From a virus (lineage: Duplodnaviria; Heunggongvirae; Uroviricota; Caudoviricetes): DNA of 10,931 bases. The position numbers were made by a program. Below are positions 9,001 through 10,931 of the stretch, piece after piece (position 1 is the stretch's first letter; every line of letters begins with the position of its first letter). The stretch lies in the IMG/VR virus record IMGVR_UViG_2534681938_000031; one strand, given 5' to 3'.

Positions 9001-10931
9001 AACGTCCGAAGGTTGCGCCGGAACTTACCGCAGCCTTTGAAAACTTTATGGACATGCACAGCCCGCAAGCCGTATCAGCTGGCATGGCATACGATGGCAG
9101 AAACCAGGGCGATGACGGCGACATCGATCGCATACTGAAAACCATCTGAGACAAGGCCGGAGAAATCCGGCTTTTTTACGGGTCCTTCCTGGAATTATGG
9201 CCCGTTACGGGGCGGCGACCTCGCGGATTTTCGCTATTTATGAGCCTTTTCAGGGTGGTGGTGGTGGTTTTGTTGTTTGATCTATCTTTATGAATGAAAA
9301 GGGAAAGATGCAAGCAATACACCAACCTGAAGCAGTAATTAAGTTGGTGTATTAATGAAATCTCATCTGATGAACAAAAAAAACATGGCGAAAAGCTGCC
9401 GTGTAAGTGCGACAGCGTTCGACAAGTGGGGAGTAACTCCCGTTGAGCGTAAAGGCCGTGAGGCGTTTTATGATGTTGCCAGCGTGATAGAAAATAGGGT
9501 TAACAATGCAATTAGCCAGCTTATAAACGACAAAGGCGAGATTGACGATGATGAACTTTTACGAGTCAGGATCAGATTACTGACAGCACAGGCAGAGGCG
9601 CAGGAACTTAAAAACGATCGCGATCGCGGTGACGTGATTGATACTGAGTTTTGCCTGTACGCGCTTTCAAAGCTGGCGAGTCAGATTTCATCAATCATGG
9701 ACAGCCTCCCGCTTACTATGCAAAGGAGCTTCCCACAGATTACCCCCGCCATGCTGGACAGGCTTAAAAGGGAAGTGGTTAAAGCCTGTAATGCCAGTGC
9801 CAGAGTTGCCGACAACCTCCCACAGATACTGGCTGATTACTTGAAAGAAACAACCGGAAACGTACCGGAAAAGTTGCTACAGAAGAAAGGCGAGTAACAG
9901 ACGCGCAATTATTGAACAAAAATGAGAAAGGATCTGATAATGGCATTTTCTGGCTAAAATGCCTCGTGTCAGATCCTTTCTTTTTTAATATTTTCATTGT
10001 TAAACAGTCTGTTACAGAGAAGAAGATCGGATCTGACTTTTGCCGGAAAATTCTCATAAACAGATAAAAACCGCGAGGTCGCCGCCCCGTAACGGGCCAT
10101 AATTCCAGGAAGGACCCGACGACACCAGACTATCAGAGCGATGGGGGCACAATGACAGAAGCCGAACTACTGGGATTAATCCGCCGCGTCGCCGGAATCA
10201 GCCAGCAGCATGACGAACAGGCCACACAGCCGGACAGCGTGACCGCTGAAAATTATGTGCGTGTTGTAGCGGAAGTGATGCGCCGTGATGGTATAGAACT
10301 TAATGGCGTTGATATGCGCAACATACGGAACCGCGTTCTTGAAATGCTGGCCTACAATCGCCGCGTTGAACTGTATCGGGAGAAAGAAAAATAACGTACC
10401 ACTGGAAGAAGCCGGAACGGCTGCGGCGGTAACTTGCTGATATTCCCGATAACGCAAAATTGCGCTGGCTACATCCTCACATCTGAGGACTGTTAATCAG
10501 AAGGCCGGAATATATTCACAAACTACGAAATTTTCGTAGTTTAATTAATGGTCTGAACCGCCCCGGGTTTCCTGGAGAGTGTTTTATCTGTGAACTCAGG
10601 CTGCCAGATCATCGTTTCCGATGGAAGCATAATAAGCTTTTTCTGCTTCTGCCGGAGGAGTATGGCCCAGCCTTCCCAGCAATCGTCGATTGTTATACCA
10701 GTCCACCCACGTTAGTGTGGCCAGTTCCACTTCTGCACGGTTTTTCCAGCTCTTACGGTGTATTACCTCCGCTTTGTAAAGACCATTGATGCTCTCAGCC
10801 ATCGCGTTGTCATACGAGTCGCCTGTACTCCCTGTTGATGCCAGTAATCCGGCTTCTTTTAGTCGCTCCGTATAGGCCAGTGACACATACTGAGAGCCTT
10901 TATCGCTGTGATGGATGGTGCCAGACGGACG

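Follow-up and report, generated by a model that had tools for sequence, protein, structure and literature searches.

The window analysed here is the whole stretch of 10,931 nucleotides of IMG/VR virus record IMGVR_UViG_2534681938_000031 (Caudoviricetes). It is a phage satellite, i.e., a phage-inducible chromosomal island (PICI), of the EcCICFT073 family, in which the terminase small subunit gene terS is bracketed by two opposed cohesive-end (cos) sites. This region is probably a dual-specificity packaging cassette, bounded by two complete opposed lambda-type cos sites, cos1 (+) and cos2 (-). The feature is genuine and conserved, and it looks functional. It represents no new kind of element, being the TerS-bearing form of a two-cos arrangement that had already been published.

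Two opposed cos cores

A repeat search over the window gives one outstanding inverted repeat, with arms of 76 nt (9179-9254 and 10043-10118) that are 91% complementary. By direct comparison the outer 48 nt (9179-9226 and 10071-10118) are perfect reverse complements; the chance expectation for a perfect 48-nt inverted pair in 10.9 kb is about 7.5e-22. The window has the cosN sequence GGGCGGCGACCT at two places only, 9210 (+) and 10076 (-). The initial annotation of this stretch, which described a perfect 48-bp inverted repeat carrying cosQ-cosN on both sides of terS, is thus confirmed. GGGTCCT is found in both arms at -30 to -24 relative to cosN, which are the sequence and the position of lambda cosQ. 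The I2 segment of the arms (bp 13-47) is identical to that of phage 434, whose cos is of the lambda type, at 28 of 35 positions. Both arms contain the 12-nt cosN, a cosQ about 30 bp upstream and I2 downstream; by sequence, each arm is a full lambda-type cosQ-cosN-I2 unit.

9179-9254, + strand: cos1 core, left arm (cosQ GGGTCCT 9180-9186, cosN GGGCGGCGACCT 9210-9221, I2 9222-9256)
10043-10118, - strand: cos2 core, right arm (I2 about 10041-10075, cosN 10076-10087, cosQ 10111-10117)

The opposed sites are 0.85 kb apart, with terS between them. The colinear cos-terS-cos region is found in 490 of 5426 complete Escherichia coli genomes. An assembly artefact as the source of the repeat is ruled out, the same structure being present in hundreds of complete genomes.

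The prototype EcCICFT073 has two sites, named cos1 and cos2, both functional when cloned (PMC6092414, PMC6739421). In the CFT073 locus (L034) a cos (+) lies at 2595, rppA at 2696-3130 and a cos (-) at 3335, with a phoQ-side attachment site. The rpp start falls at cos1 bp 102 in this locus and in the literature (PMC9026076). Since an opposed pair surrounds rppA in CFT073, the published cos1 and cos2 are the same opposed pair as that of the window; of the two, cos1 lies upstream of the specificity gene and reads in the same direction. The arrangement is not new: the pair had been published for the prototype (PMC6092414, PMC6739421), whose locus shows the same opposed geometry and attachment site. 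The main texts of these two papers make no mention of cos orientation. On inverted or opposed cos in PICIs, the literature search (main texts) gave nothing beyond PMC6092414, PMC6739421 and the review of Murialdo and Feiss.

cos1 and the island TerS

Downstream of I2 the plus-strand copy enters a (GGT)n tract, which is followed by terS.

9257-9352, + strand: probable cosB of cos1, with (GGT)n-TTTTGTTGTTTG at cos bp 48-70 (9257-9279), then an inverted pair
9317-9326 and 9343-9352: the inverted pair (10 bp), ATACACCAAC and GTTGGTGTAT, at cos bp 108-143, just before the terS start
9355-9897, + strand: terS, Pfam Phage_Nu1 (PF07471) with E 3e-23 and 82.6 bits (cut-off 30); phrog_57 over residues 1-174

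The tract begins at about 9255 and reaches about 9268, filling cos bp 48-59; bp 48-70 read GGTGGTGGTGGT, then TTTTGTTGTTTG. In N15, R3 is located at cos bp 48-59 with the sequence GAGGTTGTTGTT (PMC4669245). The island TerS matches the Nu1/TerS family profile over its full length and has an N-terminal winged helix-turn-helix (HTH). It is 44% identical overall to N15 gp1 (E 2e-51). In the alignment, a winged-helix domain like that of N15 gp1 is joined to a C-terminal half of the island type.

The type of cosB was compared with the type of gene in 38 distinct cassettes: (i) when TerS has an N15-like DNA-binding domain (DBD), the 5'-side cosB is GGT-TTGTTG in 22/22 cases, the 3'-side one being CAGATCC or 21-type; (ii) with RppA, the 5'-side cosB is ACCACCACC in 12/12 cases and the 3'-side one ATGTCCGG or N15-type; (iii) when TerS has a 21-like DBD, the 5'-side cosB is 21-type and the 3'-side one CAGATCC. 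In other words, the 5'-side cosB tracks the DBD type of the gene and the 3'-side cosB assorts independently (CAGATCC, 21-type, ATGTCCGG, N15-type). The position of (GGT)n at that of N15 R3 and its perfect co-variation with the N15-like DBD of TerS speak against an early suggestion that the plus-strand copy is a decoy, a termination-only site or a cos without cosB.

The cos1-type cosB matched 66 viral contigs in IMG/VR. Thirteen of these are large and 11 could be judged: all 11 have terS then phrog_1561, and none of them has terL. The cos1-type cosB is seen only in satellites. Judging from homology and co-variation, cos1 would serve the TerS of the island itself and cos2 a terminase of the helper type.

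Island TerS proteins are chimeric (L006:4314-4895 (-); L008:9517-10098), with an N15-like or a 21/PhiR5_1-like DBD. They share one conserved C-terminal half that ends in the extension TTGNVPEKLLQKKGE, absent from phage TerS. Scanning the cassette for sigma-70 promoters and for terminator consensus sequences told little (3 weak sites resembling promoters, for 1.2 expected).

cos2 and its phage counterparts

Only the minus-strand copy continues into a lambda-style R3/R2/R1 cosB, as noticed in the initial annotation.

9924-10037, - strand: cosB of cos2, phage type, with R1 9924-9939, inverted R2 9967-9982 and R3 10019-10037 (core CAGATCC)
9924-9988, + strand: hairpin made of R1/R2 and an inner stem, then a T-run, right after terS

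Counted from cosN, R3 (GTCAGATCCGATCTTCTTC) lies at bp 51-69, the inverted R2 at bp 106-121 and R1 at bp 149-164. This agrees with the lambda-type layout annotated for phage 434 (50-65, 108-123 and 151-166); the R elements of cos2 thus keep the lambda-type distances from cosN.

The same elements are found in full-size phages. A pattern extending from cosN to R3 matched viral contigs of 44-50 kb (L121, L139, L148, L155, L160, L161), in which cos2-type R elements precede a colinear terS at +182, then terL. In a prophage of E. coli OkiPb01694 (L166), the order is lysis genes, cos, TerS, TerL, portal, protease, D, E. Its cosN is identical to that of the window, its R3 matches that of cos2 at 20/22 positions, and its R2 and R1 have the core of cos2 and are equally spaced. 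This CAGATCC cos-terS type is present in 223 of 5426 complete E. coli genomes (about 4%). The recognition segment of the CAGATCC-type TerS is DVRTITAWQSQG (L166:6001-6767; L139:10330-10850). From these comparisons, cos2 is a copy of the cos of real lambdoid phages, without their terS. It must be noticed that a stricter scan of viral contigs, with the exact R2-N-R1, had matched satellite-sized contigs alone; the idea of a satellite-specific cos2 was dropped once the looser pattern had found full-size phages.

No GenBank phage record contains the CAGATCC cos-terS type at 80% or more coverage, and GenBank phages searched by BLAST with the cos2 region matched it only in part, at cosN/I2. CAGATCC lambdoid prophages appear to form a further packaging-specificity group, so far uncharacterised, next to those of lambda, 21 and N15. 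A partial record named 'phage SerU-LTIIb' (L033, KU052038.1, 6461-7146), which has LT-IIb toxin genes, contains a split Nu1-like/terS region and matches the cos2 cosB region of the window at 72% identity.

The R1/R2 hairpin has a predicted RNA fold of -38.2 kcal/mol (z = -5.4; 0/200 shuffles as stable). From this fold, it is probably the intrinsic terminator of terS.

Flipped and exchanged cassettes

The left junction of a synthetic flipped isomer has a full-length match in 5 E. coli genomes. Two loci (L004, L005) are colinear with this isomer over about 1750 bp at 91% identity; when they are aligned with the native order, the alignment breaks exactly at the repeats. Other flipped forms include L006, where TerS has a 21-like DBD, and L014, with a non-lambda cosN. 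The gene-less cassette described below exists in both orientations (L045/L054 vs. L040/L069). L167 is EcCICFT073 in flipped form, i.e., with the same RppA accession and the same attachment site; its cassette is 99.4% identical when inverted and its right flank 99.6% identical. The flipped orientation thus occurs in at least 6 cassette variants. The counts in E. coli genomes are:

terS cassette: native 490, flipped 5
rppA cassette: native 67, flipped about 15 (one inspected)
gene-less cassette: about 9 in one orientation, about 3 in the other

The invertible cassette of the initial annotation is supported in so far as flipped isomers exist in nature (L004, L005, L006, L014, L167, L040 vs. L045). 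It is not supported as a fast switch. No flipped copy was found in about 217 O157-type islands that match the window at 99% identity or higher, consensus assemblies hiding minority states, and no invertase such as that of Hin/Gin- or Fim-type switches is encoded in or beside the cassette, the sole recombinase in the window being the attachment-site integrase.

In flipped isomers the cosQ spacer remains with the backbone, while I2-cosB moves with the cassette; the exchange point thus falls in the stretch of approximately 24-26 bp around cosN that is common to both arms. The cosQ spacers of the two arms are not the same in most islands (36/46 positions identical), and the arms share about 24-26 perfect bp. 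The left cosQ spacer has been converted to the right-hand type in the window, in L027, in L055 and in the flipped L167, hence the long perfect repeat of the window. This conversion is a signature of homologous recombination, which is enough to explain the flips. Cassette boundaries between Rpp and TerS islands coincide with cos, and both cos sites remain complete in either orientation. Inversion is most likely a by-product of recombination between the arms. The idea that inversion restores a lambda-like order, cosB then terS, was discarded as impossible: the cosB of cos2 and terS are on the same segment, tail to tail either way.

Survey of related islands

The family survey comprises 81 loci anchored on phrog_1561 (80 from one scan, plus L039). 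A scan of species-representative genomes with the same anchor gave a single locus and was of little use. The loci are distributed as follows:

terS between two opposed cos sites: 20 loci
rppA between two opposed cos sites: 14 loci
524-bp cassette between two opposed cos sites: 5 loci
terS and a truncated cos2 (lacking cosB and half of cosN, e.g., L002): 10 loci
phrog_1561 in other surroundings, without paired lambda-type cos: 32 loci

The initial annotation had proposed to compare homologous islands for the presence of one or both cos copies: two opposed sites are found in 39/49 and a truncated cos2 in 10/49. The 524-bp cassette (L040:3401-3936; same span in L045) lacks any credible gene. Two cosB make it up, back to back: one of N15/Monarch type, in which GGTTGTTGT is repeated three times, and one of ATGTCCGG type. 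This gene-less form argues that both sites can be aimed directly at helper terminases. Across islands the cos2 position holds at least 4 different complete phage-type cosB variants; sister islands have a 21-type, N15-type or ATGTCCGG-type cosB there.

More distant islands (L026:9290-9580; L008:10080-10380; L014:9400-9700) have a non-lambda cosN on one arm, which is the cos2 side in some. It is for instance GGGGGTAGCCAT-like beside a CAGATCC cosB; in L026 the other arm keeps the lambda cosN. These mixed arms hint that the two sites may target different TerL nucleases. Single-base variants of cosN in one arm (GGGCGGAGACCT, GGGCGACGACCT, GGGCGGCGGCCT) are found in cos1 (L015, L024, L025, L066) or in cos2 (L027, L116) and may leave one site of the pair inactive or weaker. 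In L007:2486-3984 and L031:1518-3016, an internal deletion of terS fuses its start to its last codons and cos2 is retained; both have an unrelated open reading frame (ORF) of 182 aa, containing an HTH, on the opposite strand beyond cosQ.

phrog_1561 is also found, at 87-91% protein identity, in L051, L039 and about 30 further loci without paired lambda-type cos. These have no gpE/gpD upstream, and phrog_1561 comes immediately after a coding region of another sort (upstream of position 4001). The gene appears to occur in a second kind of element as well.

Proposed packaging by two terminases

In the proposed mechanism, cos1 would be the private initiation site of the satellite, its N15/Monarch-like cosB being read by the N15-like winged helix of TerS, and the island TerS would recruit the TerL of the helper phage. 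At cos2, an unmodified helper terminase of CAGATCC specificity could start to package the island in the opposite direction. Transfer of EcCICFT073 requires cos1, through whose cosB the RppA-TerS complex acts (PMC6092414, PMC6739421); deletion of cos1 alone lowers transfer, and only the double deletion abolishes it (PMC6092414).

The opposed geometry may serve to avoid premature termination, which fits with the completeness of both sites after flipping. In lambda, the travelling terminase recognises cos only on arrival from the cosQ side. With two sites in direct orientation 0.85 kb apart, a packaging series from the downstream site would end at the upstream site, with loss of the cassette. In the opposed orientation each site would be invisible to the motor of the other, and each could both begin and complete a packaging series of its own. 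In lambda-like phages, termination does not depend on cosB but needs cosQ, cosN and I2 (PMC4669245). The shared cosQ-cosN-I2 arms would at the same time be recombination substrates, allowing the cassette to flip and to be exchanged between islands.

Several points weigh against the dual-specificity cassette: (i) deletion of EcCICFT073 cos2 raised transfer by lambda and phi80 (PMC6092414), and cos2 can be a cost with non-cognate helpers; (ii) cos2 is truncated in 10 of the 49 surveyed islands and is therefore dispensable, though common; (iii) compared base by base, the R3-like tract of cos1 is identical to N15 R3 at only 7/12 positions (bp 48-59), so that its assignment as a TerS site rests on position and co-variation, and physical linkage of adjacent DNA could partly explain the co-variation between DBD and cosB; (iv) the R2/R1 hairpin may be kept as the terminator of terS and not as TerS binding sites; (v) the single O157:H7 prophage cos inspected is 21-type, not CAGATCC-type, and in a small sample (IMG/VR genome identifiers and one O157:H7 prophage) no CAGATCC-type phage co-resident with a window-type island was found.

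Some of these points would also be expected if cos2 were a functionless relic of a captured cos-cosB or of a cassette swap, kept by linkage or as a hairpin terminating terS: the higher transfer without cos2 (PMC6092414), the truncated copies, the strength of the terminator-like hairpin and the lack of a cognate prophage in the one O157:H7 genome sampled. A relic is nevertheless unlikely. The cosQ, cosN, I2, R3, R2 and R1 of cos2 are all intact at lambda spacing, R3 being outside the hairpin; complete phage-type cosB variants, at least 4 of them, occur at this position across islands; the gene-less cassette retains two phage-type sites; and the cloned cos2 of EcCICFT073 supports transfer, whose abolition needs deletion of both cos (PMC6092414). 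The related idea of a scar of cassette acquisition holds for the exchange of cassettes at cos, but not for cos2 itself, which is a complete copy of a real phage cos.

The natural flips admit two further explanations. The terminase itself could flip or swap the cassette by cutting both cosN, which would leave two identical 5'-GGGCGGCGACCT ends, ligase then rejoining the cassette either way or inserting that of another island. This follows from the geometry of the sites, the backbone keeping two complementary ends, and fits with an exchange point in the short segment shared around cosN and with Rpp/TerS cassette boundaries that coincide with cos. Moreover, the minimum homology of the RecBCD pathway is about 23-27 bp, and the 24-26 perfect bp (approximately) shared by the arms of most islands are presumably marginal for RecA. 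The conversion of the cosQ spacer (window, L027, L055, L167) is on the contrary a signature of homologous recombination and not a product of cutting and religation, ordinary recombination at a conserved cos explains the same breakpoints, and the literature search found no experimental precedent; terminase-driven flipping is thus a rather doubtful explanation, slightly below the relic. Very improbable is a programmed, often-switching invertible element (phase variation) that would set the direction of packaging or the expression of terS. Both orientations do exist in at least 6 cassette variants, and the perfect repeat of the window is unusually long (48 bp). An invertase is however lacking, the attachment-site integrase being the only recombinase of the window; none of about 217 near-identical O157-type islands is flipped; gene-bearing cassettes have a biased orientation (490 vs. 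5 genomes for terS, 67 vs. about 15 for rppA); and flipping alters no site, both cos being complete either way.

The island and its genes

The other features of the window are:

1-1230, + strand: tyrosine integrase (Pfam Arm-DNA-bind_3, Phage_integrase; phrog_1)
1595-1783, + strand: AlpA-type regulator, a PICI hallmark (Pfam Phage_AlpA, E 5e-17)
3972-5371: primase-helicase, split here as 3972-4391 / 4388-5371
5820-6230: single-stranded DNA-binding protein
7320-9149, + strand: late backbone genes upstream of cos1, the same gene set as EcCICFT073 c1499/c1500 (PMC6092414)
7320-8375, + strand: lambda gpE-like capsid protein (Pfam Phage_cap_E)
8388-8723, + strand: gpD-like decoration protein (Pfam HDPD)
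8736-9149, + strand: phrog_1999 protein
9155-9177, + strand: hairpin and T-run closing the capsid operon, directly before cos1, read from the sequence (GGCCGGAGnAATCCGGCTTTTTT motif copy)
10152-10394, + strand: phrog_1561 backbone gene, just outside cos2

As in PICIs, an integrase lies at one end, an AlpA-type activator and an own primase/replicase are encoded, the size is in the range of about 10-15 kb, and gpE-like and gpD-like genes are present. ORF and family scans of the whole window found no terL, portal, tail or lysis genes. Two lambda-type cos sites are present, cos1 upstream and cos2 downstream of the specificity gene. In the standard EcCICFT073 type this gene is an Rpp redirecting the helper TerS; here, the gene between the cos sites encodes a 180-aa TerS of the Nu1 family.

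A terminator-like motif, GGCCGGAG(A/C)AATCCGGCTTTTTT (family D1), has three copies (6516-6545, 6879-6908 and 9151-9180), located at operon boundaries of the island; the third ends right at cos1.

An island 99.9% identical to the window is inserted between roxA and phoQ in E. coli O157:H7 (L001). All 5 indels between the two are single-base losses in A/T homopolymer runs (4357, 6631, 7190, 9981 and 10387). They split the primase-helicase gene and cut the phrog_1561 protein to 80 aa, vs. 93 aa in relatives, the latter by a one-base loss in an A-run. These indels look like sequencing errors rather than gene decay. An IS3-family insertion sequence (IS; rve domains, minus strand) at 10553-10931 adjoins the island on its right side. 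L001 instead has a 95%-identical IS that interrupts the 5' end of the integrase gene; this gene is intact in the window.

Comparison with known systems

The two-site layout was published for the prototype EcCICFT073, and the reason for it had been left open. The present analysis adds (i) the opposed geometry, (ii) the phage identity of cos2, (iii) a cos1 private to the satellite and (iv) a cassette that can be flipped and swapped. If the proposed explanation is true, the satellite hedges between two packaging routes and the identity of cos2 predicts the mobilising phages; this is relevant to the question of which phages disseminate these islands among pathogenic E. coli, O157:H7 included. The specificity module is shown to be a cos-bounded cassette, flippable and exchangeable. 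If terminase-driven flipping were true, packaging specificity (terS or rpp, plus two cosB) would be shuffled among satellites by the parasitised enzyme, without a recombinase.

The cos-type Staphylococcus aureus pathogenicity islands (SaPIs) SaPIbov5 and SaPIbov4 are also satellites with a helper-type cos for packaging by the helper terminase, and SaPIbov4 also has two putative cos sites (PMC6092414). Their sequences are unrelated and their terminases HNH-dependent.

Compared with lambda, cos2 of the window has an almost base-for-base layout, cosQ-cosN-I2-R3-I1-R2-R1, with identical cosN and inverted R2. The R core is CAGATCC vs. GTTTCC in lambda, differing at bp 54-56, and bp 56 is critical for packaging specificity (PMC4669245). 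In addition no terS follows cos2, the 3' end of the oppositely oriented terS abutting R1, and lambda has a single cos, not two opposed ones. In the CAGATCC prophage (L166), unlike the window, the cos leads into a colinear terS (segment DVRTITAWQSQG), terL and portal.

N15 and Monarch (PMC4669245) are the closest to cos1 and its gene. The wing-helix segment of TerS is conserved (AFDKWGV-PVE--GRE-F-DV-SV; 44% identity overall) and a G/T-rich triplet repeat occupies cos1 bp 48-59. However, the R3 tract of the window is GGTGGTGGTGGT then TTTTGTTGTTTG vs. GAGGTTGTTGTT in N15, cos1 has two more short repeats before terS, and the C-terminal half of the island TerS is island-specific, with a 15-residue extension.

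EcCICFT073 has the same backbone as the window (int, alpA, replicase, gpE-like capsid, gpD-like, phrog_1999, phrog_1561), the same phoQ-side attachment site and the same opposed cosQ-cosN-I2 pair around one small specificity gene. They differ in that (i) the gene of the window encodes a full-length Nu1-family TerS with an N15-like DBD, 17% identical to RppA; (ii) the cosB of cos1 is GGT/TTGTTG-type vs. ACCACCACC, and that of cos2 CAGATCC-type vs. ATGTCCGG; (iii) the perfect arms are 48 bp long in the window vs. about 24-26 bp in CFT073.

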